DNA of 62,903 nucleotides, filler included, from Stramenopiles sp. TOSAG23-3 (taxonomy: Eukaryota), in NCBI GenBank assembly GCA_900128585.1. It is 9 parts of 9 records of this genome, joined end to end, with 100 filler letters (N's around TTAATTAATTAA, not from the genome) between each part and the next. Parts side by side here need not be neighbours in the genome. Positions count along the whole stretch, not along the records: positions 1 to 8,464 come from LT643016.1; 8 more parts are not named here. One strand, given 5' to 3'. The notes under the pieces were generated by a model. The model saw only the letters and a program-made list of their open reading frames with translations. It searched no databases and was not told the DNA's origin. Shown piece after piece: positions 1 to 62,718 of the stretch (position 1 is its first letter; every line of letters starts with the position of its first letter). The position numbers and the translations under genes were made by a program.

Positions 1-1598
1 CATTTCTGTTTTCGTTTTGCCTTTGCGCACATTATGGTAAACTCTCCGAAATCTATTTCCGAGTCCTTGTTGACGTCCATCACACGTAGCATTTCGACAA
101 TTTGAACCTGGTCCGCTTCACTAGCTTCCCCGTTTTCGTTGAAGGCAGCAAACACACCAACAATTTCGTTCTTATCAATGGCCCCGTTTCCATTTGTATC
201 AATAGTTTGGAACGCTGTCTGAAGTTGCACTAATTCCTGGGGGGAAAACGCGGAGCGTGCCGATAGGTTTTCTTGCAAATTAGCCTTTGTTACTATCGTT
301 GGTTGACCGTTTAGTCGCTGCGGTTTCGGCGGGTTTTCGTTAAAGAATTTGGCGAACTCTTCAGAAACTATTCGCCCGTCACCATCGATGTCAAGGGCAT
401 CAATAACTTGCGTTAATTCCTCCTCAGTCATATTCGAGGTCGGCAGTAACTTTTTCATTTGGGTAGCCAATTCTTGTCTGTCCAGAACGCCGTTGTGGTC
501 TTTATCCCATTCTTTGAACAACCGTGGCAAATTTTTACCGCCTTGATAATATGCAGCCGCCCTAATCTTTTTCCTTATAAAGAAAATGTCAGTGTCAGTC
601 AACACCCCGTCTTTTGTCCACCCTTTATTGCTGTCTTTTGCCAATCCATCGAACCGCTTCAATTTGCTATCGTCTACATCGCTCCCACGCATGCCCTTCG
701 TGTACGTTTCACCTGAAGCAGCCAAAGCAACGTTCCTCGATTTTTTCTTTGTAATCCGACCTATATTTTGTTTTACAAATGCGACAAATTCTGCAATACC
801 TATACTTTCGTCACCATCATAATCCAAATAATTAAAAAATTGATCATACTCCTCTTCAGAAAGGTCTGGCCCCAAGGAAAATATTAGATCGTGCATTTCG
901 TCAAAGTCTAACTCACCATCGTTGTCCTTGTCCCATCGCTTGAACACAATTTCTGGTTTAAATCCACCAGGAACATAGGACGCTTTTCTGAGAACAAGCC
1001 TGAGTTGATTTAATTCTTTCTCATCCAACACCATGTCTGCGTTGAAGGTGTTGTTTGAAAAAGATTTTGCAGCCTTAAAAATAGATTCAACGATCACAGC
1101 AGATGCACGACTGTCCGCATCACTGCCATCGCATTTTGGTTTGTTTTCTGCGCATATACTAATAAATTGCTGTAAAGTAACTTCCTTCTCTTTCCCGCCC
1201 AAGAGCCCTTTTACCTGATCTTCAGTAACCTTGCATTCTGCTATCACGAGCATTTTTGTTATTTCACCTGTATCTAGAGTGCCCGATTTATCTTCATCTA
1301 TTACTTCGAACAGGCCCGTTAAACCGGCTAATTCCTCTGGTGTGAACGCAAGGCGATGTTTAATAAGGTCTTCATTACTGTACAATTGGCCATCCTCTGC
1401 TCCCTTTTCCGTCCCTTTCTCCTCACTGTTTTCTTCTTTCTGCTCTTTTTGTTCATCGTCCACGCCGCCAGTAGTTTCACTCCCATCTACGCCAGCTCCC
1501 TCTGCACTTGCAGTTTTTTCGCCGTTTTCCAGGTTCTCCCCCACACTTGGAGTCTCCGCAGCGGGCGCGGTCTCCGCTTCGGTTGGGCTTTCTGCCAT
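1..1598 (-). CDS. Multi-EF-hand calcium-binding protein (3' truncated at window edge)
   Basis: Not in the ORF track because it has no stop in the window. ATG at 1598 (MAESPTEAETAPAAE...). At least 7 EF-loops: DEDKSGTLDTGE, DKDNDGELDFDE, DYDGDESIGIAE, DKDHNGVLDRQE, DIDGDGRIVSEE, DTNGNGAIDKNE, DVNKDSEIDFGE. Confidence 0.9.
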   Translation of the reverse strand, partial: MAESPTEAETAPAAETPSVGENLENGEKTASAEGAGVDGSETTGGVDDEQKEQKEENSEEKGTEKGAEDGQLYSNEDLIKHRLAFTPEELAGLTGLFEVIDEDKSGTLDTGEITKMLVIAECKVTEDQVKGLLGGKEKEVTLQQFISICAENKPKCDGSDADSRASAVIVESIFKAAKSFSNNTFNADMVLDEKELNQLRLVLRKASYVPGGFKPEIVFKRWDKDNDGELDFDEMHDLIFSLGPDLSEEEYDQFFNYLDYDGDESIGIAEFVAFVKQNIGRITKKKSRNVALAASGETYTKGMRGSDVDDSKLKRFDGLAKDSNKGWTKDGVLTDTDIFFIRKKIRAAAYYQGGKNLPRLFKEWDKDHNGVLDRQELATQMKKLLPTSNMTEEELTQVIDALDIDGDGRIVSEEFAKFFNENPPKPQRLNGQPTIVTKANLQENLSARSAFSPQELVQLQTAFQTIDTNGNGAIDKNEIVGVFAAFNENGEASEADQVQIVEMLRVMDVNKDSEIDFGEFTIMCAKAKRKQK

Positions 1599-2600
1599 GT
1601 CCGCAAGCTAAAGAAGTAAAAATTCAATTATAGAAAATGGACTCTGAAAACTCAAGAGGTGAAAGAACTAATTGTTTGCTTCTAATGAATACCGCAAAGG
1701 TCCCCGAACGATCAATGTGAAACAGTAACAATAAATGAGTGCAGAGGAAAGTATTCTTCCTCACGATGAAATTGTTGCCATTACCCCCCCCCCCCTAGAG
1801 ACTTTAGGGGAAGAAGTTATAATAATAGCGGTGGCCCCCCCCCCCCCCCCCTGCAATAAAAATATCATCATGTTATATAGAATAGCAGGAAGAACTATGC
1901 CACAACAACAACAAACAACCCAAAAAAAAAATAGCAAAAAAAAATATTATCGTAGAATGAAAAATGGCGCAAGTTGGACGACAACGTAATATTAAGGTTT
2001 GAAACAGAATTAATTTTTACAAAGTAAATATTTAATATTATTATTAAATTATATTAAAATGAAAAATATATACACACAAATATAAATACCTTAAATAAAT
2101 ATTCTTGCAATTCGTTTCACGTTTACAAACGGTCAACTATTATTATCCTATACGAATTACAGGACAGCACTTTGCATTGGGCAGTGTACTACGAGTATGT
2201 AATATTGCCGATGCCAATGCTATAGCCTGTAGTTTTAATAATGACAAAGAAGAATTATGAACTTGCTTCAAAAGCTCTTTTTTTGAGAAGAAGAAGAAGA
2301 CCGTTTTTATTTATTCTATTCCCCAATAAAATAATAATATTAATTAATAATACGAGGATGATACGACGACTATTATCATCATATCGCTCACCCATCATCT
2401 CCTCCTCTCCATGCAACAAGTGAGCTCGGTTGTTATTTTATCATTATTCGTCCTGGGTTAAAATATACAGTTTACACATTAATAAAGAATAGCCCCTCAG
2501 CGACACAAATTTAAGAAATGTGTATGGACCTTCCTTAACATTTCATTTAGATATAGTACTATGGTCGCTTATTTGTAACGCAACAAACAATCCTGTTGAA

Positions 2601-3650
2601 ATGGAATTGGCACCAGGCTCTGACCCTTCTCTGGGCCTCGTCGTTGCCACGGGGGACCTTCGACAAGAAGCCCAGAAGGACTCCCTTCTTTACGCACATA
2701 TTCGAAACTTAGAAGTTTTGAAATCGCTTGCTTCCTCTTTGCTAAATGATTCAGACATAAAAAATTCCAACAATGAGGCAGAAAGCTCTACTAACAATAG
2801 CAGGAGTGGGCTGACCTGGTTGCACGATTCCAGGAACAAGGCAGTTTCGCTACACCAAGCGGAGTGCAAGAAAAATGAGGAGTTACAGAAAAAATTAAAA
2901 TTTATGGAAGCAACAGGAGTGAAGCAGGCTAATGTAATCGCAGAAATCCGAAAAGAAAACTGTTCATTGAAAAGCAGTGTAGCTAAATTGGAGCGGGAAA
3001 ACATTGACATACGAACAGAATTAAAAAAAACTGAAGGAAACTTAGTTTCCCAGGTTACCGGCTTGAACGATCTTGTAACAAATTTGAAGAAAAAAAACAC
3101 AAACTGTGTTCTGCAAGCAGAAAACAAAGCATTAAAAGAACAGGCCATTACTGTAGAGGCATGCAGAATGGGTTATGAAAGTCGAGTAAAAAGGATGAAA
3201 GAGGAATATAATTCTTTGGAAGCAGAGCTACAGGAAGCTCAAGGCATAAACAATCAATTAATTGCGGATGTTGCCAGCACTACCCTGCCAGTTGTAGAGG
3301 CCTTGAGGGCCGAACTGGAAGCAGAGAAGAAAAAGAACTTGGAAAAGTCGAAGCGGAGCTGTACTTTAAAGGAGAATTTGAAGAAATTATTTGCTAAAAA
3401 TCGCATGTTAGAGAAACGAATCCAGAAGCTTTTGATGAAGAAGAAATCTTCCGTAATTGTGGAGAACACTTTCGCAAACCCAACGAGTGCGCTGAGTGAC
3501 AACAGCAGTGAAAACATGCAGTTTAGGGCTTTAAAATTAGAACAAGTGAGACTCGCTTCGGCGCTTGGAAAATCAAAAACTCGTGAGTCTAGATACTTGA
3601 AAGGAGGTCGACGAATTGTATACAAGAACCCATTGGATATATGTCTATAG
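2601..3650 (+). CDS. Coiled-coil protein of unknown function
   Basis: Long open frame, E/K/L heptad-rich. Likely ATG at 2601 (MELAPGSDPS). The 3' end could be spliced. Confidence 0.7.
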   Translation: MELAPGSDPSLGLVVATGDLRQEAQKDSLLYAHIRNLEVLKSLASSLLNDSDIKNSNNEAESSTNNSRSGLTWLHDSRNKAVSLHQAECKKNEELQKKLKFMEATGVKQANVIAEIRKENCSLKSSVAKLERENIDIRTELKKTEGNLVSQVTGLNDLVTNLKKKNTNCVLQAENKALKEQAITVEACRMGYESRVKRMKEEYNSLEAELQEAQGINNQLIADVASTTLPVVEALRAELEAEKKKNLEKSKRSCTLKENLKKLFAKNRMLEKRIQKLLMKKKSSVIVENTFANPTSALSDNSSENMQFRALKLEQVRLASALGKSKTRESRYLKGGRRIVYKNPLDICL

Positions 3651-3967
3651 TCGTCTAATATAAAGTTAAAGTACAGGAGGCAGACGACTCCCACATTAAA
3701 TATGATGATTGTTGTATTCTAAATTAGAAAAACTACGATTTACATAGGAGGTTCAACATGTAAATCATTTTAGCGGTTCGACTGACCCTTTCTTCTTCTT
3801 CTGTCTTCTGCATGATTTCAAATTGTTTTCTCCTCGTTTTCTTTTCTTCAATTTCCCAACTCGTCTTTCTTGACATAGAATTCTTCTGTGTCAAAAGAAT
3901 ATTCGGCTTTTAACCTCCCGTGAGCAATTTCGATAAATTCGAGGGGCAGCCTCCGCTCGGAACAGAA

Positions 3968-6359
3968 ATGTCGGACTTGGTGGTATCGACGTCCCTTCGG
4001 GATGCCAAGTTGGACAGGGATAGAGAGATTATTAACTTGGCGAAAAAATTGAATCAGTTAAGAAATTTGGCAGAGCTTACCGAACGAAAAGCGGAAGCGT
4101 TAAATGATGAAGGGGAAAAACTGGACGAATACATACTCTCTGTAAAAAACGATAGGCAAGTGGCAACACAATTGATAGACAATTTGAAAGAGCCATACGA
4201 GGCCATTACCTCAATCGTGAAAGATATGGCAAAAGAGATCGGTCAGTTGTCCCGGAGTAAAATGAATGAGTTGCGAAGGATGACCAAACCACCCAACCTT
4301 ATAAAAAAGACCGTTGAGTTGGTTTGTCACTTGGTAAAAATAGAAAGCCCAAATGGTGCGAAATATTTCAACAACGAAACGTTGCCGAAACTGGATTGGG
4401 ATAGGGACTGCTTGCCGATGCTGAGTTCGAAGAATTTCTTGGGTGATATTTCAACGTATAGGCCATCAAAACTTTCTTCTGTAGAAAAATTGATCAATTT
4501 GCTAAAAACCCAATATCTTTCACAAGAAGAAATTGAAAAAATGAATTTAATGACAGAAAGAAAGGAAGAGAACAGTGGAACAAGCGCAAAAAGGTCTACT
4601 TTGGCAGACTCGTCGGCACCGGCAAGGAAGAAGACAACAGAAGAGAACGGTGGATTAAAATTGCCTTCCATTTCGACAATAAAAAGAACCAACGAAACAA
4701 ATGTAAAGACTCTTCTCTCCTCAATAGCAATTACAAACACGCAACAAAGAAAGAATGAACACATCAGCCTTACACCTGCAAATCTGTCGGTATCAAAAGT
4801 TAGCTACTCGTCCAAAACAACAGGGTCTTTGCTAAAATGGTGCATTGGGCAATTGAGATATAGTGAAGTATTGGGCGTACATGACGAATCGGTATTGCAA
4901 AAAGTTGAGGACGCAAAAGCAAATGTTGAACGGGCCATCGTTGCGATTGAGGAGCGCAGCATAAAACAAAAGAGTATTAAGGAAGAAGTAGAAGAATTGG
5001 ACGAAAAGGCCGGCACTATCAACCATGAAATTGAAATTATATTGAAAATGTTGGAAAAATTCAACAAAGAAAAGCTAAATGAAGAAAGGGCGATTGTTGA
5101 AAAATGCGAAGAAGAGAAGGCATCAAGGAGAAGGAAAGAAATAGAGAAGACTGTTTCAAAAACAAAATCTGTTCCAACGCCACCCAAGCCTCCCATTACC
5201 CCGTCAGTCTCGAACACATTTTCTTTTTCTTCCCCTGCAATAGAGCACCCGACAGTGCTCGTGCCTTTGGTTGGTTCAGTTAGTATAAGCAAAATACCGG
5301 TAACTGTAACACAACAGTTAGCGTTTGAAGAAGGCTCCACAAAATTAACGACAGTCGCTTTAAAATCTTTGGACGGGGTACTAAATGTCATGAATGAATG
5401 CGAATCGAAAATCTGTATAGAAAGTAAGCAAACAGCAAGCGAAAGTGCGGGGGTAAGCGAAGCTCGAGCAAGTGCTGTTAGACAGTACCTTACTTCAAAC
5501 GGTATTAACCCAGCACGCTTAAGAACAAATGCTTTTATAGAAAACAGTGCGCGTTTTGCAAGACAAGATGCGAGGGGAAACGTCGTGAAAAAACTCAGCA
5601 AACAAGTAAGTTTTTACATTATTCAAGAGTTGCGATTAGGTAAGTTTAAAGATTTTAGCCCACACGTGTAACACTCAAATCTCATTAAAGAGACCCCAAC
5701 CCCTAACAACCCCTTTACGCAATACAATAGCTGGGACGATCGAATTTTCTCAAATGAGCTCAGATTTAAAGTCATCATCACATGCTTTGCTAGATGATGT
5801 TGTTGCAATTTTAAAAAGCAACCCATTCATGTTTTTGAAAATTGAAGGGCATACAGATAATAGGCCGTCATGGGGACAAACGAATTTGGAATTAAGCGAT
5901 AATCGTGCGTGTGCTGTTGAAAAATACATCGTTAATGTAGGTGAGATCGAGAAAAACAGATTGCAAGCCCAAGGATGTGGCGAACGATTGCCGTTAAATT
6001 CTAATAAAACGTCAAGTGGGAGACAAGCAAATAGGCGAGTAGAATTTCATTTAGAAGATCGCAAGGCACAGTCGAGCATGAGAGATTTAGTCCGGAACCG
6101 CGAAAATAGTATTAGCAGCGATGAAAATGCAGTAAAATCACTCCTTGCAATCGCAAGTGGGAAATTTGGCGGAATGGGGTTTAGAGTAAGGCAATGCGCT
6201 GCAGATGTTTTAATAAGCAGCGGTGTTGACTGGGAAACACTGCGTTTTTTATACATTGCCTCGTTGAAAAAGGAAGACACAACAAAATGTTTTCTTGGCA
6301 ATTTAAGCACGGATGTTATACGAATTATCGCGCGATGGTATTTTCGAATTTGTAAATAA
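3968..6359 (+). CDS. Dynein microtubule-binding stalk-like domain + two OmpA C-like domains; two exons (3968-5639, 5731-6359)
   Basis: Stalk-like motifs LSRSKMNELRRMTKPPNLIKKTVELVCHL and VSYSSKTTGSLLKWCIGQLRYSEV flanked by coiled coil. Degenerate OmpA (VSEARASAVRQYLTSNGINPARL). Canonical OmpA (KIEGHTD...NLELSDNRACAV...GCGERLP...GRQANRRVEF). An intron joins the two ORFs in frame. Confidence 0.85.
5640..5730 (+). other. Spliceosomal GT-AG intron, 91 nt
   Basis: G|GTAAGT donor at 5640, CCCTAAC branch point at 5701-5707, TAG acceptor at 5728-5730. Removal gives ...ELRL-A-GTIEFSQMSSDL, in frame with the ORF at 5754. Confidence 0.9.
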
Positions 6360-6472
6360 ACATTTCAATACTTTCTAATTAAGAAATCTTAAGAATTCTT
6401 CGGAGAGAGGTGTGTACACAATTTATTGCCGTTAAATTTTATTTTGTTATCTTCACATCATGATTTTTCTTC

Positions 6473-8464
6473 TTATTTTAATGAGGATGCAAGCTTCATG
6501 TTTAAAAGAAAATTGGGGTCAATGTGATAAATTTCTGGTCGTTGTTGCTGAATTGTCCTTAAGTATAAAAGTATACCTTCCAAAGGCAATTGCAAAAGAT
6601 CTTCTTCTAGTAACGACAACAGCGCAATCACACAATTTAGAAGACTGTCCCAACCTTGTATAAAAAAAATATCCCAGAGCCGAGCGACAGTGCTTGGTGG
6701 AATCAGGTCGAACTCAGTAAACATGGTTCTAAACCATCTCGTGTAAATGTCCGCAAAATCAACCGACTCATTCTCAAAATGTTTTTTCAAAGCGGGCAAC
6801 TGAGACTCCAACAAACCGTTAAACTTAGTGTACAGAATTTGGGGATTGATTTGACTCGCACTATTTGACATCGAGCTAGGTAGTCCAGGGGCGTAAAGGC
6901 ATTCCAACCCGAAGTGGCGAAATATTACCACAAGCATCCAAAATGCGCGTTGCTCGACCTCACTTGTGGAAGTATGCACGTTCCGTAGCCACCAAAGAAT
7001 GAAGCCAACGAGTTGGGACATACCGTTGCAATAACCCAAGTCAGGATCAAACGTGGCGTACGCATATAAAACGTTACGCAAGCGCGATTTGAAGTCTGCC
7101 TTCTGACCAGATCCGTTCAAATCCTCGTCTTCCGCACCGATTGAGTACGAGGATACAAGCAACGCCTCGATGTGTTGAACATCAAAATTGATCTCATCTG
7201 CCCATTTCATATCCTTTGCATTGTGTGCACGATCTAAGACATCATAGTAAAATTGATTGTCTGTGTTGTGTACCAGCGTTTCCACACCACCACAATGAAG
7301 CCAAAACCTTCCTCGCAGGGCAGTTGGCAGGGATTTTAATCGTATGCTTTGGTGCCACAGTTGTTTTTCTTCCCTGATCACTTTCTTTAAATCCCGGCAT
7401 ACTCGCGACAAGAAGTTGAATTCATAAGCCTCTAGCAGAGGAAGTATTGTTGTCCTGACATTTTTTATTCGAAAAACAACAGCAACCTTTTTACCCGCCC
7501 GGCTCGTGCCTATTGTACCATTTTGAAAGCGCGAGTCATTGCTTCCGACAGTTCTGGCATATTCCTGCACGAATCCCACGCTATTTTCCATTTTATTAGT
7601 GCTCTGCAGGCTATCAATCCCTAAAGGACTACTAAAATCAACCCCACCATCTCCATTATTAGTGGCAGCCGGCGAAGGAGGAACAGCAGTCCGGGACATC
7701 ATCCGATTCGATGGCATCGACATTTGATGTTGTAACTGTTGCAATAGTTTAGTTTGCTCTTCTAACTTTTTACGGCGCACTTCAGCAACGCTTAGGAGAA
7801 CTATGTGATCCACGATAATGTTGATAAAGCTTATGACTTGCCGGAAGCTTTGTGCTGGGGTTATTGAAGCTTCCGAGACGGCTGGAACAATGTGGCGATG
7901 ATGGTAAATTGACCGCAACGTTGCTGAAACGCGATGGGCCTTTTCACTAACGTCAACCAGAAACGTTTCAGTGCGGGCAGGACCGTAATTTTCAGTCGAC
8001 AATTTGCTTGGAAACGAGTGGTATTTCACCCGTTCATCACTTTCAAGCCCTAGCGTGTTTGGGGCGGGAACAACATAAGTGTCTTTAATGGCATGACTCC
8101 TGTCATTCAACAAAGGAGTGCTTTGAAGCGTGGAAGATCGTAGCGAAAATGACTTTTTATGGGCCTTGTCAATAATGGATTCGTCAAAAAACACAACTTC
8201 CGACGACTCCGATGTGGGGTCGGAACGATCGGTAACAAATTTCGCGAACAGCTGGGTGTCCACAACTTGACCTAAAAATTCTCGATTTGTCTTGTTTTCA
8301 TTCAAAAAGCTGACTTTGTCAAAATTCAAATTACTGAAAGGTGAAGAAATAGTATCACTACCCGTGCTCAAAAATTTCTTGTAATTAGCAAATAGGGAGA
8401 CGAAAAACCTTAGGAAAGCGTCTCGTATTGGCACATCAGTAAAGCCTAGCGATTCATCAAGCGA
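6473..8464 (-). CDS. DENN (dDENN) + TBC/RabGAP-like domain protein, 5' truncated by gap
   Basis: dDENN-like IRDAFLRFFVSLFANYKKFL...FDKVSFL...FLGQVVDTQLFAKFVTDR. TBC-like LRGRFWL...EINFDVQH...LRNVLYAYATFDPDLGYCNGM...AFWML...RWFRTMF...VARLWDIFF. Confidence 0.85.
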   Translation of the reverse strand, partial: SLDESLGFTDVPIRDAFLRFFVSLFANYKKFLSTGSDTISSPFSNLNFDKVSFLNENKTNREFLGQVVDTQLFAKFVTDRSDPTSESSEVVFFDESIIDKAHKKSFSLRSSTLQSTPLLNDRSHAIKDTYVVPAPNTLGLESDERVKYHSFPSKLSTENYGPARTETFLVDVSEKAHRVSATLRSIYHHRHIVPAVSEASITPAQSFRQVISFINIIVDHIVLLSVAEVRRKKLEEQTKLLQQLQHQMSMPSNRMMSRTAVPPSPAATNNGDGGVDFSSPLGIDSLQSTNKMENSVGFVQEYARTVGSNDSRFQNGTIGTSRAGKKVAVVFRIKNVRTTILPLLEAYEFNFLSRVCRDLKKVIREEKQLWHQSIRLKSLPTALRGRFWLHCGGVETLVHNTDNQFYYDVLDRAHNAKDMKWADEINFDVQHIEALLVSSYSIGAEDEDLNGSGQKADFKSRLRNVLYAYATFDPDLGYCNGMSQLVGFILWWLRNVHTSTSEVEQRAFWMLVVIFRHFGLECLYAPGLPSSMSNSASQINPQILYTKFNGLLESQLPALKKHFENESVDFADIYTRWFRTMFTEFDLIPPSTVARLWDIFFIQGWDSLLNCVIALLSLLEEDLLQLPLEGILLYLRTIQQQRPEIYHIDPNFLLNMKLASSLK

Positions 8465-8564
8465 NNNNNNNNNNNNNNNNNNNNNNNNNNNNNNNNNNNN
8501 NNNNNNNNTTAATTAATTAANNNNNNNNNNNNNNNNNNNNNNNNNNNNNNNNNNNNNNNNNNNN
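8465..8564. other. Artificial contig linker (N44-TTAATTAATTAA-N44); same linker at 17022-17121, 25574-25673, 34113-34212, 42639-42738, 51146-51245, 59648-59747, 61276-61375
   Basis: Eight 100-nt N spacers, each containing a six-frame stop cassette. Confidence 0.99.
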
Positions 8565-14974: not shown

Positions 14975-15492
14975 ACTTCGAGTGCATTTAGCATATCATA
15001 CTTTTGAGATTTATATATATATATAAAAAAAATGATTACTTTCGTACTATCATATCAATACGTAACAGAAAATTAAACAACAGAACATATAGCAGGGAGT
15101 TAGTGTTACATAAAATAAAATTGAATAACAAGGAAAATGACGGAAAAACTTATAATTTTAACCAAAAAAAGTTCTCTTCACTCTACGCATTTATATAGGA
15201 CATTGTTACAAGTACAAACAATCATTGAATTTTATCGCAAAAACTTAAAAGTAAAAAAAGCAGAAAAACAAGAACAACTGCTGCTGAATTATAGTCGTCT
15301 ATTAAAAATACGAATGTTGTTTGTTAAAAAAACAACAACTGTAATATTAATATAACCCAAGAAAAGAATTTTCTTTGGGGAAGACGATCCCCTTGAGCAT
15401 TTTCATTGGGAATATTGAAAAAAACGTTCACTTTTAGCACTTTTGTTTTCGGTTGTTCCCTGGTTTGTGCAGTGGGGCTCCCACGCAAAACT

Positions 15493-17021
15493 ATGCCCGG
15501 GCTGCTGGTGCAAATGCTCTTTGCCATTCTCCTTCTCTTGCACACGGCGGACGTTGGAGTCGCGACTTCCAAATGGGGATGCAGCGGCTCGAACGGGGCG
15601 TACGTGCAGTATATGGACTGTGCGTTCGGGGACGAAGTGAGCCTGAACGGGGACCTGAGCGTGACGGGGCGGGAAGGGAACTACACGACGCTAACGGCGG
15701 CAAGCGGGAAGAGGCATTTTAAAATTACCAGTGGAGCGCACACACTAAGATTGAAATGGTTGAATATGACCGGTGGGGACGTTGGGACATGCGACAGCGA
15801 CAGTTGTAAAGGTGGTTCCATTCACGTTAAAAACGCAGCTGCCCATTTGAACATATCCCAATGTGTATTTTTCAAGAATCGTGCTTTTTCGGGTGGTGCT
15901 GTTTATGCGTTCTCTAACTCAGGACAACCGACTCTGCTCTTCTCTTACGTATTGTTTGAATCCAATTCTGCAAGCGCTCACGGAGGGGCAGTGCTGTTAT
16001 ACAAAGGAACATCTCATGGTGAATGGAATACATTTAAAAAGAATGCAGCAGGACTCGATGGTGGTGCAATGTACATTGTCACCGCTAGTACAGTCTCAAG
16101 CACGGACTCCTCTTTTATCAAAAACGAAGCATACAAAGCAGGAGCTGGTATTTATATCAGGAGCGATTCCTCCAGTCCTAGCCAAATTAATTTAACAAGG
16201 GCTCAACTGATTGAAAACAAACAAACAAGCGGCGGATCAAGTACTTATCATGGAGGCGGCGGACTTTATATAGAGGACAATGCGGTTGCCAATATAAGAG
16301 AATGCACGCTTGTACGAAACGAAGCAACATCAGGAGGCGGTGGGCTAAAGTATGGGCATCAGATTATGACCAGGAGGGATACTTCAAATGTTCCCTCCAT
16401 CACCATCGTCAACACGAACTTTACCGACCTTGAAGCGTCTTACCGTTTCTACGGGTACGATGGAGATGATAGAGATGGCGGTAATCCAAACGGCCCCGAA
16501 GAGTACATAACCCCGTCCGCCTGCGCCGCCAGACCCTGCACCGTCATACCTTTCGACGGGGACTGCTACACGCGCGCGTCCGATAAGCAGGGCGTTATCT
16601 GCGACCCCCCCGCCTGCCCGGCCGGTTCCTATAACCAGTTTCTTTCGACGTCGTTGCCACCGCCGTTGGCAATACCGTGCGGCGAGACGATGCCAGAGTA
16701 TTCGTGCTCCCAGTTGCCCTCCCGAGGGGTGTACAAACGTACCCAAGACTGCACGTTCGGGGACGAGGTGAGCCTGAGCGGAGACTTGAGCGTGACGGGG
16801 AAGGAAGGGAATTACACTACGCTGACGGCGGCGAGCGGAAAGAGGCATTTTAAGATTACCAGCGGCGCGCACACACTGGCGTTGAAATGGTTGAATATGA
16901 CGGGAGGTGATGTTACAAGTGGCTTGGGCGATGGTGGTTCCATTTATATTTTCAGAGTCGCTGCCCATTTGAACATATCCCGTTCTGTTTTTTTCAATAA
17001 TCGTGCTGATCTAGGTGGTGC
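15493..17021 (+). CDS. Secreted/surface right-handed beta-helix (Pmp-like GGA(I/V)/FxxN repeat) protein, 3' truncated
   Basis: Signal peptide MPGLLVQMLFAILLLL. Repeated FxxNxA..GGA(V/M)Y motifs. Internal module duplicated at 15616-15783 and 16747-16914. Confidence 0.85.
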
Positions 17022-17452
17022 NNNNNNNNNNNNNNNNNNNNNNNNNNNNNNNNNNNNNNNNNNNNTTAATTAATTAANNNNNNNNNNNNNNNNNNNNNNN
17101 NNNNNNNNNNNNNNNNNNNNNATAAGGTTAATAATTACATTTATGATATTATTTATATTTATATAATATCAACAGAAAACTACTATTCCGTAATTTTAAC
17201 TTTGCTATGTACAACTTCAAAAGTTGGAAAAAGGGGGGGGGATTAATCAAGAGGACTTTTTCAACAGAGAAAAAGACGTCAGAGAACACGCGACGTCTTT
17301 GTTTGTTTCTCTCTTGTTTCCAAATGTTTGGAAGTTCGACGTTCTCTATCGGGTTCAATTTGTTTTACAAATTATTGCACAGAGCGAAAAAAAAAAATCA
17401 ACTCGTGCGTTCATATACCGCCGGCAGGTTTCCACGCAGTCCAACGACATAC

Positions 17453-23911: not shown

Positions 23912-24473
23912 TGTATGTCCAATAAATAGGTTTCCCGTGCAAGTGGGTGTCGAGTAGATCGAACGAAACGTGCATTCATATAGTGAAGGAACGATGGACG
24001 TGGAACTGCAAAACAAACGCAAAAGAGAAAACCTCTCTCTATATATAGTATAAGTGAGTTGTTGAAATAATAATAATAATTAATGGTTTTAGCAATCTCC
24101 CTCTTTCTTCTTCCGTCTCAAAACCAATAATCCATTTACTTTAAATACATAGTATGGATAAATAAATATACTTTAATATAAATAATACAATTTTAAACCT
24201 TTTAATGTAAACAAAGTAGTTCTATCTTTTTTTTTTCACGCACTGAGATTTCTTCTTTTTTTTTTTCTTCTTTTTTTTCTTCTTCTTTTTTTTTTGGTGA
24301 AAACAATTTGTTTTGAATTTATATAGTAGATATGTATAAAAACGTATAGACTTGTGGTCATACTAAACACTAAATTAAATACGAAGATGGACTCAGTACA
24401 TTGTTTTCATTTGTGCTCTGTACCCGTTCCGTTGCATACCACTCTAGTTCTCCGTTGTTTTCTTCTTTTGAAA

Positions 24474-25573
24474 ATGGCAACAATCTTGACGGCTTCGTCG
24501 TCCTCTACGTCGGCAGTCGAGGACGCTGTTCGAGCAATTAGGGCGGCGGCGTTCGATGTTGACGCAAGGATTGCAGTTGTCACGTTGATGAAAATTATTA
24601 AGAATGTGCTAGTATCGGAAATAGGGGAGACAAAGTATAGAAACGTTCGTTTAGACAATGCAAACTTTCAAGCCCGGGTGGGTCGCGTAAAGGGGGGCTT
24701 GGCGCTGCTCGAAGCTGTTCATTTCGAAACTTCATCGGACGGGAACTTCTTGGTGCTCTCTCCCATCAACGAAGCTACGGCCGACCTGTTGTCCGCGATG
24801 AAGCGGTTGGACGCGGAAGGCATTGTGCTGGACTTGGGGGACCAGGAACGGCCACGTGTCCCGTCGCTGGATGAGATCAAGTGCGGCGCGGGCAGGTCCT
24901 CGTCGTCCTCTGCCCGTGCCCCGTCCTCGCGCACCGCCAGGGAGAAAGTCGACGCGGCAGTAAAGCAGATCCGCGCGTCTGCCTTTGACATCGATGCGAA
25001 GGTCACCGTCCTTACGTTGATGAAAATGACCCGGAACGTCCTGGTAACCCCGTCGTTCGACGAGAAGAAACGGACTGTTCGTGTCAACAACCAAGCCTTT
25101 CACGCGAAAGTAGGCCGCGTGCGTGGCGGCCTGGACTTTTTGCTCGCGATTGGGTTTGCACCTACGGACGGCAATCAGCGGTTCGTCCTTTCCCCGGAAC
25201 GGGAGGACAAGGAAGCCCTGTACGAAGCAATGACGCGGCTGAACGCGGAGGCCGGGGCGTTGGAAATCCCACCCCAGGATCGACCGACGTTGCCGACGAA
25301 GGACGAGGTCACCAGGGCGTCGAGTGCGACGAGGGAGGTCACGAAGGCAGTCTCCAGCTTTGACCCGTACAAGACGAAAATCAAGCGTGTCACCCCGCAG
25401 CCCCGCCCAGGAAGCAAGGGGGGGAACAACAGCGGAAAGTCCGAAACGGAGATCAAGCTCGAACGGCTGCAGAAACGCCTGAAGGACCTGTTGGCCAAGC
25501 AGAAAGTCCCCGCGACGGATGCCGATCGGGGCATCCTAGTGTTTCGGCCCGGGCATGGCCCGAGCCGCGGCAG
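24474..25573 (+). CDS. Tandem PUB-domain protein (p97/Cdc48 cofactor-like), 3' truncated
   Basis: Two copies of TLMKxxxNVL...KxRxVRxxNxxFxxxVGRVxGGLxxLxAxxF. Confidence 0.85.
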
Positions 25574-25790
25574 NNNNNNNNNNNNNNNNNNNNNNNNNNN
25601 NNNNNNNNNNNNNNNNNTTAATTAATTAANNNNNNNNNNNNNNNNNNNNNNNNNNNNNNNNNNNNNNNNNNNNCATGACTCCGGACACAATTTTACTTGC
25701 GTGGGAACGTACGTTTCCAATACTGTCAAAAGAATATTCTATGTTCTGATTTCCTCTTCCCTTCGCCCCAAAGCATTGTCCTCTACGACC

Positions 25791-26987: not shown

Positions 26988-27059
26988 TTACACTGACTGG
27001 AGTCGAACCAGCTACCTCCGCGTTATGAATGCGGTGCTCTGCCGTTGAGCTACAATGTA
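26988..27059 (-). tRNA. tRNA with CAT anticodon (elongator Met-type fold)
   Basis: 72-nt cloverleaf: acceptor TACATTG/CAGTGTA, D arm GCTC-AACGGCA-GAGC, anticodon arm CCGCA-TTCATAA-CGCGG, T arm GCTGG-TTCGACT-CCAGT, discriminator A. No encoded CCA. Followed by T5. Confidence 0.92.
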
Positions 27060-27921: not shown

Positions 27922-28115
27922 ATTGTGGAGGTATTAATAGCTACCATAATAGCAAAAAAAAAAAAAAGAAGAAGAAGATAAAAATGAATTGCATTTTTTG
28001 ATGCGGCGTGTTTTTTTTTTACAGAGTGCATGCAAATGTTTTATATCGGTGCATACTAGGAAAAAGAAAACACACACACACGCACACACAAACACTAACT
28101 TCATTCAGACAAACC

Positions 28116-29123
28116 ATGCTGCGAACCTTTCTCTTTCTGTGCTGCCTGTCCGCGGGCGCACACGCCAGAATGAGCTGGCCCGAAACAAAATACTCATACG
28201 TCGACCCGGTGTTCACTGCGTACAATCCATCAGACTATTCCATCGATACAAAGGCAATAGGCGCGTACGCAAAGCAGTCGGTTGACAGTGGGGTCAACGT
28301 GATCCTTTTGGGGGGGTCAACTGCGGAATGGCCTTCTTTGACCCAACAGGAACGGTTGGAGCTTTTGAAGGCGTGGCGAACGGCGGTCGATAGCTTGTCT
28401 TACTCGGAAGGGTCTGAGAAGCCGCAGATTCTCTTTCACGCGGGGGATATTTCAATTGCAGCGGCACAGACGTTGGCATCCAAGTCGAAAGAGTACGGTG
28501 CCGACGCCATTTTGATAGTTAGCCCTTGCATCATGAAGCCGCCCACGGTGCAGGACTTGGTGAGCACTATCAAGTCGATCGCCGGAATGGCCCCCAGCCT
28601 CCCGTCCGTTTATTACCACTATCCTGCACTCTACACAGTGGATTTTAAAATGGACGAATTCCTTGACCTTTCATCTGATCCAGTGCACGGGATCCCTACT
28701 TTGGCCGGGGTCAAGTACATCGACGGAGACATGAACACGTTCACCAATGCAACGGGTGTTGAAAATTCCTCCTACACCTTATTCAACAATGATCCTCTCC
28801 TTGCTGGGATGGCAGCCGGAAGCAAAGGAGCGATTTCGTACACAACGATTTTCCCGATGGTTCAGAAGATGAGAGCCGCGTACGAAAGCGGCGACATGGA
28901 CGCCGCGCGCAAAATTGAAAGGGACATAATCGAATATGGCGCGCTTATCAATACCTACGGCGCAAAGTCGGCTGCACGAAACTTACCAAAGCTTTTTGGA
29001 GGGCCCGACCTCGGCCCACCGCGACCGCCTCTTGTTCCTCAGACGCCAGAGCAGTTCAATTCGTTTAAGGCGGCCCTGGAAGCGGCTGGTTTTCTGCAAG
29101 GTGGCGACAAGTACTACTTGTAA
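28116..29123 (+). CDS. N-acetylneuraminate lyase / DHDPS-family class I aldolase with signal peptide
   Basis: GSTAEWPSLTQQER, GADAILIVSP, YYHYPALY, Schiff-base GVKY, LGPPRPPL. N-terminal MLRTFLFLCCLSAGAHA. Confidence 0.88.
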   Translation: MLRTFLFLCCLSAGAHARMSWPETKYSYVDPVFTAYNPSDYSIDTKAIGAYAKQSVDSGVNVILLGGSTAEWPSLTQQERLELLKAWRTAVDSLSYSEGSEKPQILFHAGDISIAAAQTLASKSKEYGADAILIVSPCIMKPPTVQDLVSTIKSIAGMAPSLPSVYYHYPALYTVDFKMDEFLDLSSDPVHGIPTLAGVKYIDGDMNTFTNATGVENSSYTLFNNDPLLAGMAAGSKGAISYTTIFPMVQKMRAAYESGDMDAARKIERDIIEYGALINTYGAKSAARNLPKLFGGPDLGPPRPPLVPQTPEQFNSFKAALEAAGFLQGGDKYYL

Positions 29124-34112: not shown

Positions 34113-34212
34113 NNNNNNNNNNNNNNNNNNNNNNNNNNNNNNNNNNNNNNNNNNNNTTAATTAATTAANNNNNNNNNNNNNNNNNNNNNNNNNNNNNNNN
34201 NNNNNNNNNNNN

Positions 34213-42013: not shown

Positions 42014-42866
42014 TGGCAAATGGTACGTTCGTTGATGTATTTCGCTTGGGAATCTGGGAAATCAGCGAATCCTTGAAACAATTGGCGTCGGGCGGAACGA
42101 GGAACGGTTTTCCGTGCTGAATGGATATAAAATGTTAAAAAAATATGATTGCTTTCAAGCGTAGATTTTCGTTTCTTTTTCTTTTATTAATACATCTTTA
42201 CAAGTTGAATATTATTGTATTTCTTTGATTTATTTCATTGTTCCTTCTTTCCCTGACTTGACGACTACGAGTAAATAAATATTATTATTATTATATTGTT
42301 GTGTATATTTTTTATAATATTTTTCTTTTAGTTTTTAGTTTTCTTTTGTTTAATTCTATGCTGTGCAACTGTATAATATGTCAAAGAAAGTCATGATCGC
42401 GAAGAAAAAAAAAGAGAAGAAAAGAAGAAATTCTTAGTTCAGTTCATCTATATTTTCTAACTTAATAGTATAGTCACAGCATCATAAAAGAAAGAAGAAA
42501 AGAGAAATTCTTAGTAGTTGTTCTCAATCACAATCAATCAATCAACAATTTTGATGAAGAAGAAAGAAAGAAAGAAAGAGTCGAAAGAAAGAAAGAGTCG
42601 AAAGAAAGAAAGAAAGAAAGAGTCGAAAGAAAGAAAGANNNNNNNNNNNNNNNNNNNNNNNNNNNNNNNNNNNNNNNNNNNNTTAATTAATTAANNNNNN
42701 NNNNNNNNNNNNNNNNNNNNNNNNNNNNNNNNNNNNNNAAGACTCTCATTTTATATCAATTACGATTTCAGTTCCAACCCTCTAGTAATCCTATCTTGAT
42801 GTTTTCATTTGAAAAAACAAATTATTATAGTTTTTTGTTATGTTGTATTTGTATTTTTTTTATAGT

Positions 42867-50807: not shown

Positions 50808-51245
50808 TAAACACACTAAGATACAGATACAAAGGTGGGTGGTTCCCGTCACGAATAGCCCTTCCTCCTCCACGTCGCTGTCGTCGACTAAAGAAAAGTA
50901 CAAGAACAGCGAAGGCAAATTTTCAAATATCTTTTTTTTTCTTTCGTAGTCAATCATCTTTTCCTTGTAATTTAATTTCTTAACACTTTTCCATTTTACT
51001 TTTCATAAGATCATATATAGTCCATAATAATAATAGAATCTCAAAATCTATATTTACAAAATATCTATCTCATCTTCTTCTCCATCATCTACCAAGCAAG
51101 GTACCGGTATTAAAATATATAAAAAAGTAATAATAATTTTTTTTTNNNNNNNNNNNNNNNNNNNNNNNNNNNNNNNNNNNNNNNNNNNNTTAATTAATTA
51201 ANNNNNNNNNNNNNNNNNNNNNNNNNNNNNNNNNNNNNNNNNNNN

Positions 51246-59317: not shown

Positions 59318-59747
59318 TAGAAGACCCAAATTTCAAAACACTTTATGAAAATCTACGTAATTCTAAAAAAAGTTAAAAAAATTATACAACTACTACTATA
59401 AAACAAGAAAAATTGGCTGTTTTATTTAAAGTACTACTAAATATTCCTCTCGTAATTTCTAAGGAACAGCCAATTTTTGTTTCTTTTCCTAAGACTTTCC
59501 CGGCAGTCATAATACAATAGTTTTTTAATTAAGAATTTAGATTACACCGTGATCTAAATAACAGCATTATTGGCTGTTATTTTATAGTAATTAAAATTAA
59601 AGAAAAAAGAAGGTGTCAGTTCAAGAACAATATCTCCTCCTATTGCANNNNNNNNNNNNNNNNNNNNNNNNNNNNNNNNNNNNNNNNNNNNTTAATTAAT
59701 TAANNNNNNNNNNNNNNNNNNNNNNNNNNNNNNNNNNNNNNNNNNNN

Positions 59748-60951: not shown

Positions 60952-61378
60952 CGGTATTGGCGCTGTACGATACGTTCGGGCGCGGACTTCTTCTCTTCCG
61001 CCCGAAAAGTTTTGCTTTCAGTGAAATGGAGCACACTATCTCTCTAATACTTGTTGAAAACAAGGAAAGGAAAAGATTCAGGTCAAAAAGCTTTAGAATT
61101 TGATGGTTGATCGTGATGTACATTAGATCTAAGTCATCGTATACAGTTTTATAATTATGTCATAGTACCTGTAGTATACTCATCATCTGGAACACCCTCG
61201 CTTCAATATTTGAAGACAAAAAACCCAAGATGTATACGTAGTTTTAAGTAAAAAATCACAATGCATACTTCGTAANNNNNNNNNNNNNNNNNNNNNNNNN
61301 NNNNNNNNNNNNNNNNNNNTTAATTAATTAANNNNNNNNNNNNNNNNNNNNNNNNNNNNNNNNNNNNNNNNNNNNTCT

Positions 61379-61464: not shown

Positions 61465-61884
61465 CAAAGTAACCTCCTCCTCCTCCTACCTCCTCTTCTA
61501 TTGAAAATATTAAAATATTTTATAAATAACACCACCGTAGTAATATAAAAATACAACTAAACTATACAATTAAAAAAAAAAAAAAAAAAATGAAGAACAG
61601 AAGAAAGAAGAAGTTATAGTTTGTCGTTATTATTATTAGAGAGAGGAGAGTTACTTATTAGGTACGAAGTAATAATTTACAACAAACAGTTTGGAAAGAA
61701 GAGAAAGAAAGAAATGTATTACAAATAGAAAAAAGTATTCCATACTTATTAAATTATAGAACAATCGAAAGAATCAGGTGTGGGTACGTATTTGTGGAAC
61801 GAACAAACAATCAACCAGAGAGAAAAAAAAGAAGACTAGCTTTTCATCGCTTTCTCTCCAACCACTTACCCGTAAATACACAAA

Positions 61885-62718
61885 ATGGCGGAACGCATGC
61901 TTCTTGCCGCGCTCAAAGAGATTTCGCTCAACCCGAACATCGATGTACAAAAAGTTGTCATGAAAACGCTCTTGAAACTGTCCGACAACGTCTTGAATAA
62001 ACCCGCCGTCGAAAAGTACCGAAGGATTCGCCCAGAAAACCCCCAAATCAAGTCTCGCATCTTTGACGTCAAGGGTGGGCGAACGGCCCTCCGGGGGATA
62101 GGGTTTGGGCTGTCGGAGGACAAGTGCACGGCCATCCTGCGCCAGAGAATGCAGGAGCTAGAGGACGGGAACGCGTTGGGGCAGCAGCAGGAAAATTCAA
62201 ATAGTAACGCGAACCGGGACCCGGCCAGGGGGTACGTTCGACGGCAGGGCCCGCAGGCCAACGATTTCAAGCGCTTCAAGGACGGGATCCAAGGGCTACG
62301 GGATCGTTGGAGCGAAACCAGCTTTGTCCTCAGCCGCGGCGCCCCGAGGACGCCCGGCCAGTTAGTCATCGTAGAGAAGAGCGTGGAGATCGCCCACGAG
62401 TTCCTGGAACTGCTGGAGGCGACCGCCAGGGAGTACGACTGCCTCCAGGGCTACATCTACCAGCACCTGGTGCACAAGTGCGGCAACGGGGACGAGACGG
62501 TTGCGAACCGGCTCCGGGCGGAGGGCCAGGCGACGTGCCAGGCCATCGTAGACGGCGCAGAACGGTTTCGGCAGACCCTACGCGTAAAAATTGCCGACGA
62601 TGCAGATTTAGACACCGCCCGTCGGGCTGTCCTTGATACGAGAGAGTTCATTCGTTTGCTAAAGGAGGAAGCCGGGAAAGCCGGAACAACCCCGTTCAAC
62701 TTATTGCAGGAGTTGTGA
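61885..62718 (+). CDS. PUB-domain protein
   Basis: KTLLKLSDNVLNKPAVEKYRRIRPENPQIKSRIFDVKGGRTALRGIGF. Confidence 0.85.
   Translation: MAERMLLAALKEISLNPNIDVQKVVMKTLLKLSDNVLNKPAVEKYRRIRPENPQIKSRIFDVKGGRTALRGIGFGLSEDKCTAILRQRMQELEDGNALGQQQENSNSNANRDPARGYVRRQGPQANDFKRFKDGIQGLRDRWSETSFVLSRGAPRTPGQLVIVEKSVEIAHEFLELLEATAREYDCLQGYIYQHLVHKCGNGDETVANRLRAEGQATCQAIVDGAERFRQTLRVKIADDADLDTARRAVLDTREFIRLLKEEAGKAGTTPFNLLQEL

Follow-up and report, generated by a model that had tools for sequence, protein, structure and literature searches.

To our knowledge, the stalk and microtubule-binding domain (MTBD) of dynein have been described only as parts of a motor. In dynein heavy chains (cytoplasmic dynein-1; 3wuq, 5ayh, 6rzb and 6kio), the stalk is an antiparallel hairpin of ~90 residues per strand that carries a helical head at its tip. 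Here we describe a gene from an uncultured marine eukaryote, Stramenopiles sp. TOSAG23-3 (GCA_900128585.1), that joins a stalk of this kind to a tandem of OmpA-like domains. It occupies positions 3968–6359 (+) of the window, by which we mean the whole stretch of 62,903 nucleotides that was analysed and that consists of contigs joined end to end. The predicted protein resembles dynein in the hairpin, in the helical head, and in having a KPP turn, a Trp in a middle helix and a last helix of the W..Q..Y type. Unlike dynein, it is 766 amino acids long in all, has no AAA+ ring, linker or tail, has its head interrupted, between the equivalents of H5 and H6, by 68 basic, disordered residues, and runs on from the stalk base into the OmpA domains.

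The closest described systems for the other half of the protein are the bacterial OmpA-like domains (5wtp/5wtl, OprF 5u1h, AbOmpA 3td3–3td5, Pal and MotB/PomB), with which it shares PF00691 and the GHTD, RA and NRRVEF motifs. It differs from these in that the gene is eukaryotic and bears an intron, the product lacks a signal peptide, a lipobox and any membrane anchor, and the domain occurs as a tandem that lacks the Asp in the first copy in all members and is fused to a cytoskeletal module. We take the ligand Asp and Arg of AbOmpA to be those in the GHTD and RA motifs. Asp271 and Arg286 of AbOmpA bind diaminopimelate (PMC12108004). Engineered chimeras of seryl-tRNA synthetase and the dynein MTBD (3err, 3j1t and 6rzb) also place a stalk and MTBD on a foreign base with no motor, and such constructs bound microtubules (PMC6629372). 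Unlike the protein described here, these chimeras are man-made and have a short stalk of 3–12 heptads with its registry set by design. In the haptophyte Phaeocystis antarctica, OmpA/MotB-like proteins have been detected at the protein level and their role was left open (PMC10861871). These are eukaryotic algal proteins with PF00691. We rate the protein encoded in the window as a new architecture assembled from known components. Its scores place it in the OmpA family, but it is neither an envelope protein nor a dynein heavy chain.

The gene model begins with an ATG at 3968 in exon 1 (3968–5639, +), which encodes residues 1–557 and the first base of codon 558. This is followed by a phase 1 intron of 91 nt (5640–5730, +; GTAAGT..AG) and by exon 2 (5731–6359, +) with a TAA stop at 6357–6359. 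The spliced coding sequence of 2301 nt (766 codons) has a single terminal stop, and the unspliced frame would end at nt 5669, for a product of 568 amino acids that lacks the second OmpA domain. GC content is 0.40 in exon 1, exon 2 and the intron alike, and the predicted N-terminus lines up with the start of a homologue (P0006). An initial annotation of this DNA, made from the sequence alone, had claimed that a clean intron at 5640–5730 joins two open reading frames into one protein of ~766 amino acids, and full-length intron-less homologues do align across it. A homologue of 751 amino acids (P0024) aligned with the spliced product in a single BLASTP segment (21–747 against 19–766, 47% identity), and one segment was also obtained with P0044 (8–739 against 9–766) and with P0004 (28–641 against 121–766). 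The junction was crossed without a break in P0004, P0005 and P0024, and at the junction P0005 and P0024 are identical, residue for residue, to the predicted spliced product. A family member on a seawater metagenome contig (L001, 1–2392) is also continuous at the position of this junction. In the region of L001 that encodes its second OmpA domain, the reading frame is broken at two further sites, which may be introns. Because these breaks differ from the intron site in the window, intron positions do not seem to be conserved within the family.

The predicted splice of 5639 to 5731 is supported by comparison with these intron-less homologues, not by RNA. Six short contig pieces were obtained from four RNA-library runs. 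None of them joins 5639 to 5731, and they are too few for a junction to be expected. Exon pieces with exact matches (0 mismatches) covered 5340–5599 (X17), 5389–5592 (X18) and both 5831–5981 and 5968–6118 (X16), where the X16 and X18 libraries were polyA-selected. An exactly matching contig from X15, a library with unspecified selection, spans 5699–5927, which corresponds to the last 32 nt of the intron and part of exon 2; it may derive from a transcript not yet spliced, from a retained intron or from DNA contamination. A second X15 piece (4965–4996) fits partially, with 2 mismatches and loose ends on both sides.

The N-terminal 415 residues are truly homologous to the dynein stalk and MTBD, and a coiled-coil stalk with antiparallel strands, tipped by a six-helix MTBD, was found by profile, by hhalign and by fold. 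The outgoing helix of the hairpin (CC1, residues 2–92; 3971–4243, +) aligns to dynein stalk CC1 and is a model helix with pLDDT 90–98. It leads into the first part of the MTBD-like head (residues 93–202; 4244–4573, +), which holds the counterparts of H1–H5, recognized by all three approaches, and the KPP turn (4286–4294). The last helix of the head, the H6 counterpart (residues 271–308; 4778–4891, +), is a second stretch matched to the dynein MTBD. The return helix (CC2, residues 309–415; 4892–5212, +) is helical in the model at 309–399 and is read from sequence onward to ~415.

When the single sequence was compared with PDB sequences using phmmer, cytoplasmic dynein stalk/MTBD constructs ranked first (E 9.4e-4 to 0.05), with two matched stretches, one at the KPP turn and one at the ...KW..GQL.Y helix. 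Residues 1–400, searched against 1.84 billion representatives, retrieved 17 proteins at E ≤ 0.001, including 5 at E ≤ 1e-10. We scanned 14 relatives with Pfam, these being 12 of those 17 together with P0004 and P0005. A family profile (A1) built from 15 family sequences gave the cytoplasmic dynein-1 stalk as its best match in the PDB (E 4.9e-16), again in two stretches, which flank the insert. Dynein heavy chains or constructs made up 58 of the 60 matches listed for this profile, and chains of the seryl-tRNA-synthetase/MTBD chimeras were among the best PDB matches of the stalk module. When A1 was aligned by hhalign with P0020, an ordinary dynein fragment that matches PF12777 (E 2.4e-13), the probability was 91% (E 1.1e-6). 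The initial annotation had suggested a search with PF12777, the Pfam MT family, and this failed with the single sequence, which gave no match at E ≤ 1 (gathering cut-off 24 bits). P0020 was also the only one of the 14 scanned relatives with a PF12777 match at E ≤ 0.01, so the stalk homology is visible at the profile level only.

The initial annotation had also suggested structural comparisons. An AlphaFold model of residues 1–400 had a mean pLDDT of 83.9 and consists of a helix at 2–92, a small helical head at 96–304 and a helix at 309–399, with disorder (pLDDT < 50) at 208–268. All 29 Foldseek matches listed were dynein entries, with a best E of 1.1e-5 and a target TM of 0.60 for 5ayh. The top 11 matches from VIA-align were dynein stalk or MTBD structures. 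The whole stalk 3wuq aligned with a Z of 16.2 over 263 of 263 residues, and the MTBD-only chains 6l4p_B (Z 14.1, rmsd 2.4 Å, 125/138 residues), 6kio_M (Z 13.2, rmsd 2.8 Å, 130/130 residues) and 6rzb_C (Z 13.1, rmsd 3.9 Å, 149/149 residues) were covered nearly in full. The first unrelated hairpin in this list was a chemoreceptor with a Z of 11.2. This indicates that a coiled coil alone gives a middling score, and it is the near-full cover of MTBD-only chains that counts. Together with the profile match, these data bear out the earlier claim of a dynein stalk with its head motifs split by an insert.

Conservation within the family is concentrated in the head. The fraction of same-group residues is 0.73 at 93–126 and 0.64 at 271–304, as compared with 0.46–0.47 in the coiled coils. 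The basic character is retained at R96 (13 of 14 sequences), R103 (14 of 14), K113 (13 of 14) and K114 (14 of 14), and an aromatic residue stands at the position of W291 in 13 of 13 sequences. In our own sequence and fold alignment, R96 aligns with mouse K3299, a residue that adjoins beta-tubulin D427 according to Lacey et al. (PMC6629372). The insert that splits the head (residues 203–270; 4574–4777, +) is 68 residues long, separates the H5 counterpart from that of H6, is basic (pI 10.4) and is rich in Thr (16%), Ser (15%) and Lys (10%). It had been described as low-complexity, and the pLDDT below 50 at 208–268 agrees with this.

The stalk is followed by the Pro-rich linker that the initial annotation had placed after the coiled coil (residues 416–445; 5213–5302, +), which is composed of 20% Ser, 17% Val and 13% Pro. 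The first OmpA-like domain (OmpA1, residues 446–557; 5303–5638, +) matches PF00691 at residues 453–525 with an E of 7e-9 and 36.4 bits. The second (OmpA2, residues 558–665; 5731–6053, +) matches the same family over residues 5–101 of the exon 2 product with an E of 3.8e-17 and 62.9 bits; the gathering cut-off is 27.2 bits. In an alignment of all OmpA1 and OmpA2 copies, EGHTD, the RA motif and NRRVEF are present in the OmpA2 of all nine family members. The OmpA1 of these nine always lacks the GHTD Asp and always keeps the Arg; its loop is shorter, and only remnants of NRRVEF survive. The Asp and Arg pair of peptidoglycan binders is complete in OmpA2 and incomplete in OmpA1. The proposal of a degenerate OmpA domain followed by an intact one that keeps both residues was correct; the codons in the window are those of Asp600 (5856–5858, +) in GHTD and Arg616 (5904–5906, +) in the RA motif. 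OmpA2 matched 57 PDB sequences at E ≤ 0.001, all of them bacterial, with 5wtp as the best (E 1.4e-16). The C-terminal half was modelled on the homologue P0005 with a mean pLDDT of 59.8, rising to 70–86 in the OmpA cores. In a fold search this model matched the domains of OprF, OmpA, AbOmpA, Pal and MotB, and its matches to bacterial OmpA-like domains were found with an E of 1.5e-8 and a target TM of 0.79–0.84. OmpA2 is 42% identical to the bacterial OmpA C-terminal domain 5wtp in the fold alignment.

The protein ends in a conserved tail of ~100 residues (666–766; 6054–6359, +, including the TAA at 6357–6359), which has 18 invariant columns among seven family tails and is predicted, at low confidence, to be helical in the model of P0005. 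Its last residues had been likened to an F-box helix with a possible role in ubiquitination, a reading for which we found no support. None of the seven tails matched any F-box family at E ≤ 10, and the motif is confined to the last 25 residues, which is too short for a whole F-box (~45 residues). A tail profile compared with the PDB matched only a designed helical repeat (E 0.078) and no Skp1-binding protein, the seven family tails matched nothing in Pfam below an E of 0.01, and the ESM Atlas held no usable match for the tail or for the homologue P0018.

As had been claimed before, the protein has neither a signal peptide nor an AAA ring. The first 30 residues have a mean hydropathy of –0.48 with no hydrophobic N-terminus, and the highest 19-residue window reaches 1.61 at residue 429, in the linker and first strand of OmpA1. 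Judged by hydropathy, the 766 residues contain no signal peptide, lipobox or clear membrane segment. A Pfam scan of the protein gave only OmpA at E ≤ 1. The six AAA+ modules, linker, tail and length above 4000 amino acids of a dynein heavy chain are absent from it, as is the export or membrane anchor of an envelope protein that lies beside peptidoglycan.

The same architecture is kept from end to end in P0024, P0044, P0012, P0013, P0018 and P0021 (25–47% identity), and the stalk-OmpA fusion occurs on independent contigs from other sources (25–50% identity). Among the 14 scanned relatives, OmpA is present in six (P0004, P0005, P0012, P0013, P0018 and P0021). Seven others (P0009, P0010, P0014, P0015, P0017, P0019 and P0022) are stalk/MTBD relatives with no OmpA in Pfam, and some of these are clearly fragments. 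P0010 is 255 amino acids long in 8 of the 10 cluster members listed, and P0022, at 621 amino acids, differs in its C-terminal part. Motor-less stalk proteins may form a wider family in which the cargo end varies. Word-indexed protein searches gave few relatives (3, 2 and 6 proteins). A metagenome scan with OmpA2 and tail patterns gave 537 confirmed matches, of which 80 were kept, and was swamped by OmpA genes. Most matches were restricted to approximately residues 1–110 of the query, and among them L001 is a member of the family. In current data the stalk-OmpA family is small and eukaryotic. DNA of the gene occurs in marine or seawater metagenomes, being contained in whole or in part in 20 of the 24 runs listed, from 11 studies; at least half of the sampled words were found in 14 of the 24, and several of the runs may be the source itself. 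A prokaryote-style gene call had labelled the read-through product an outer membrane protein. We found no published description of the stalk-OmpA family, of a dynein stalk outside dynein or of a link between OmpA and microtubules, and the papers that mention PF12777 appeared, from their titles and the openings of their abstracts, to be unrelated.

With the gene model, domain homologies, fold and conservation pattern demonstrated, we lean towards the idea that the gene encodes a cytosolic, non-motor, passive microtubule tether that keeps a ligand-binding OmpA module at a distance from the lattice. From this evidence we infer every binding step, including microtubule binding and a working pocket, as well as the role of the insert and the tether geometry. 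The N-terminal 415 residues would form a dynein-type stalk of two antiparallel helices of ~90 residues with the MTBD head at the tip, and the head would bind the tubulin lattice in the manner of the dynein MTBD. The basic, Ser/Thr-rich insert probably assists by reaching the acidic tubulin tails and could be switched by phosphorylation. At the stalk base, where dynein has its motor ring, the Pro-rich linker would lead to the tandem OmpA domains and the helical tail, with the stalk serving as a rigid spacer. OmpA1, with its ligand Asp lost, is probably a packing partner of OmpA2 in a pseudo-dimeric unit with one working pocket. OmpA2, with its complete diaminopimelate-type pocket, would bind a ligand that has a free amino-acid head group, and the rod would keep this ligand, or its carrier, roughly one stalk length from the microtubule; the conserved tail may bind a further partner. 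The initial suggestion of an adaptor that combines a microtubule-binding stalk with an OmpA module holds up, because this architecture is conserved across a family.

An endogenous small group or protein is a possible OmpA ligand, which we hold somewhat short of probable; it is favoured because the topology is cytosolic. A muropeptide-like ligand is favoured because conservation of the pocket matches that of peptidoglycan binders, and we regard a peptidoglycan-type ligand as doubtful. It is equally doubtful that the OmpA module has no ligand. In a different contig piece of the window there is a gene of the dihydrodipicolinate synthase family (28002–29120, +; PF00701, E 3.6e-26). If that piece comes from the same organism and the gene encodes a true dihydrodipicolinate synthase, the cell would make diaminopimelate and the OmpA pocket would have a possible endogenous class of ligand.

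Several points weigh against a microtubule tether with a ligand-binding end. Binding to microtubules or to a ligand is argued here from sequence, fold and conservation. Splicing was unseen in the RNA contigs, and one RNA-library contig (X15) keeps intron sequence. How OmpA1 packs against OmpA2 and how the tail folds are guesswork, given that the C-terminal model is poor. Peptidoglycan, the established ligand of OmpA domains, is unexpected in a eukaryotic cytosol. At the other end of the protein, the single sequence does not match PF12777, identity to dynein MTBDs is just 15–20%, the Z scores of 11–16 for long helical models are partly owed to the coiled coil, and the 68-residue insert that interrupts the head could change or block the binding face. 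The low identity, the missing PF12777 match and the large insert would all fit a hairpin that has lost microtubule binding and persists as a dynein-derived coiled-coil scaffold, its head remodelled by the insert for another partner. However, the head rather than the coiled coil is the best-conserved part of the N-terminal region, basic residues are kept at positions of the dynein H1 region, and the insert lies in the H5–H6 loop and is itself basic. We consider such a loss quite improbable. Even less credible is an artefact, whether through chimeric joining of bacterial OmpA and eukaryotic DNA during assembly or as a non-functional remnant of a dynein heavy-chain gene, to which we give almost no weight. 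The window is made of concatenated contigs and the read-through product was named an outer membrane protein by prokaryote-style calling, which could suggest such an origin, but the gene lies entirely within one contig piece (1–8464), and its intron sits directly upstream of the OmpA2 coding region. The artefact is contradicted by the uniform GC of both exons and the intron, by homologues that align over their full length and by the independent locus L001. The recurrence of the fusion on independent contigs from other sources and the 14 runs with at least half of the sampled words also argue against it.

If the tether is accepted, what it holds can be read in more than one way. One tentative possibility is that the OmpA fold has been repurposed, so that the OmpA domains and tail are a docking unit for a protein or endogenous ligand of flagellar roots, axoneme or cortex, and the protein is a spacer or cross-linker with no bacterial link. 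The rigid stalk architecture is kept across divergent lineages, and the conservation of the tail suggests another partner. In the P. antarctica study, OmpA/MotB-like proteins, conceivably members of the present family, were among those with the highest fold-change, and flagellar proteins responded too (PMC10861871). A pure protein scaffold, however, needs no conservation of a full small-molecule pocket, and no eukaryotic axoneme chain is among the PDB sequences matched by OmpA2. A further reading, put first in the initial annotation, is a cytosolic adaptor that couples bacterial peptidoglycan to microtubules. The peptidoglycan could be that of whole prey, symbionts or escaped bacteria, or could consist of muropeptide fragments, and OmpA2 would bind diaminopimelate-type stem peptides as its bacterial counterparts do. 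The hallmarks of OmpA2 are kept in all nine members while OmpA1 has decayed, which implies that selection acts on the pocket itself. This adaptor would also be consistent with the identity of OmpA2 to the bacterial 5wtp domain and with the binding of diaminopimelate by the Asp and Arg of AbOmpA (PMC12108004). The DNA of the gene occurs in marine plankton metagenomes. Bacterivorous flagellates are common in marine plankton. By contrast, the protein, with no signal peptide, would be on the cytosolic side while ingested bacteria are inside phagosomes, and no other immune-type or autophagy-type domain was found in the Pfam scans. We regard coupling to peptidoglycan as rather doubtful. A stronger form of this idea, in which the protein is a protist cytosolic receptor for diaminopimelate-type peptidoglycan, wired to microtubules via a motor-less dynein stalk, that positions, captures or reports bacteria or wall fragments, is in our view unlikely. 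If true, it would be an independent, non-animal solution to cytosolic wall sensing or symbiont holding and, as far as the literature searched shows, the first natural stand-alone use of the dynein stalk and MTBD.

A conserved family that uses the stalk and MTBD alone would establish the stalk as a portable module for microtubule binding, and it would offer a natural, fixed-registry stalk for studying the effect of registry on affinity. A diaminopimelate-type pocket that selection maintains in a eukaryotic protein of the cytosol poses a concrete question about its ligand. If peptidoglycan is bound, recognition of the bacterial wall would be linked to the cytoskeleton in marine protists. The protein is of interest to both dynein and protist cell biology. 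The labelling of such eukaryotic genes as outer membrane proteins by prokaryote-style calling also matters for the annotation of metagenomes.

The contigs of the window are separated by eight spacers of the form N44-TTAATTAATTAA-N44 (8465–8564, 17022–17121, 25574–25673, 34113–34212, 42639–42738, 51146–51245, 59648–59747 and 61276–61375), and their lengths fall from ~8.46 kb to 1.53 kb. GC content per 2 kb is 0.33–0.58 across the pieces. Because the window is a concatenation, gene neighbourhood across spacers carries no meaning, and physical linkage to the stalk-OmpA gene is limited to 1–8464. Within this piece there is an EF-hand gene (3–1607, –) and, upstream of the stalk-OmpA gene, a coiled-coil-rich open reading frame of 385 amino acids with no Pfam family (2493–3650, +). 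This frame stops 318 nt short of the stalk-OmpA ATG and seems to be a gene in its own right. A convergent RabGAP-TBC/dDENN gene (6476–8464, –) is cut by the end of the piece, and its frame ends ~114 nt past the stop of the stalk-OmpA gene. No dynein motor domain was found in the neighbouring open reading frames of this piece. Elsewhere in the window, there are two PUB-domain genes on separate pieces (24330–25622, + and 61876–62715, +), a tRNA-Met (CAT) at 26988–27059 (–), and an open reading frame at 15397–17070 (+) with a match to Chlamydia PMP-type repeats (E 6e-6).

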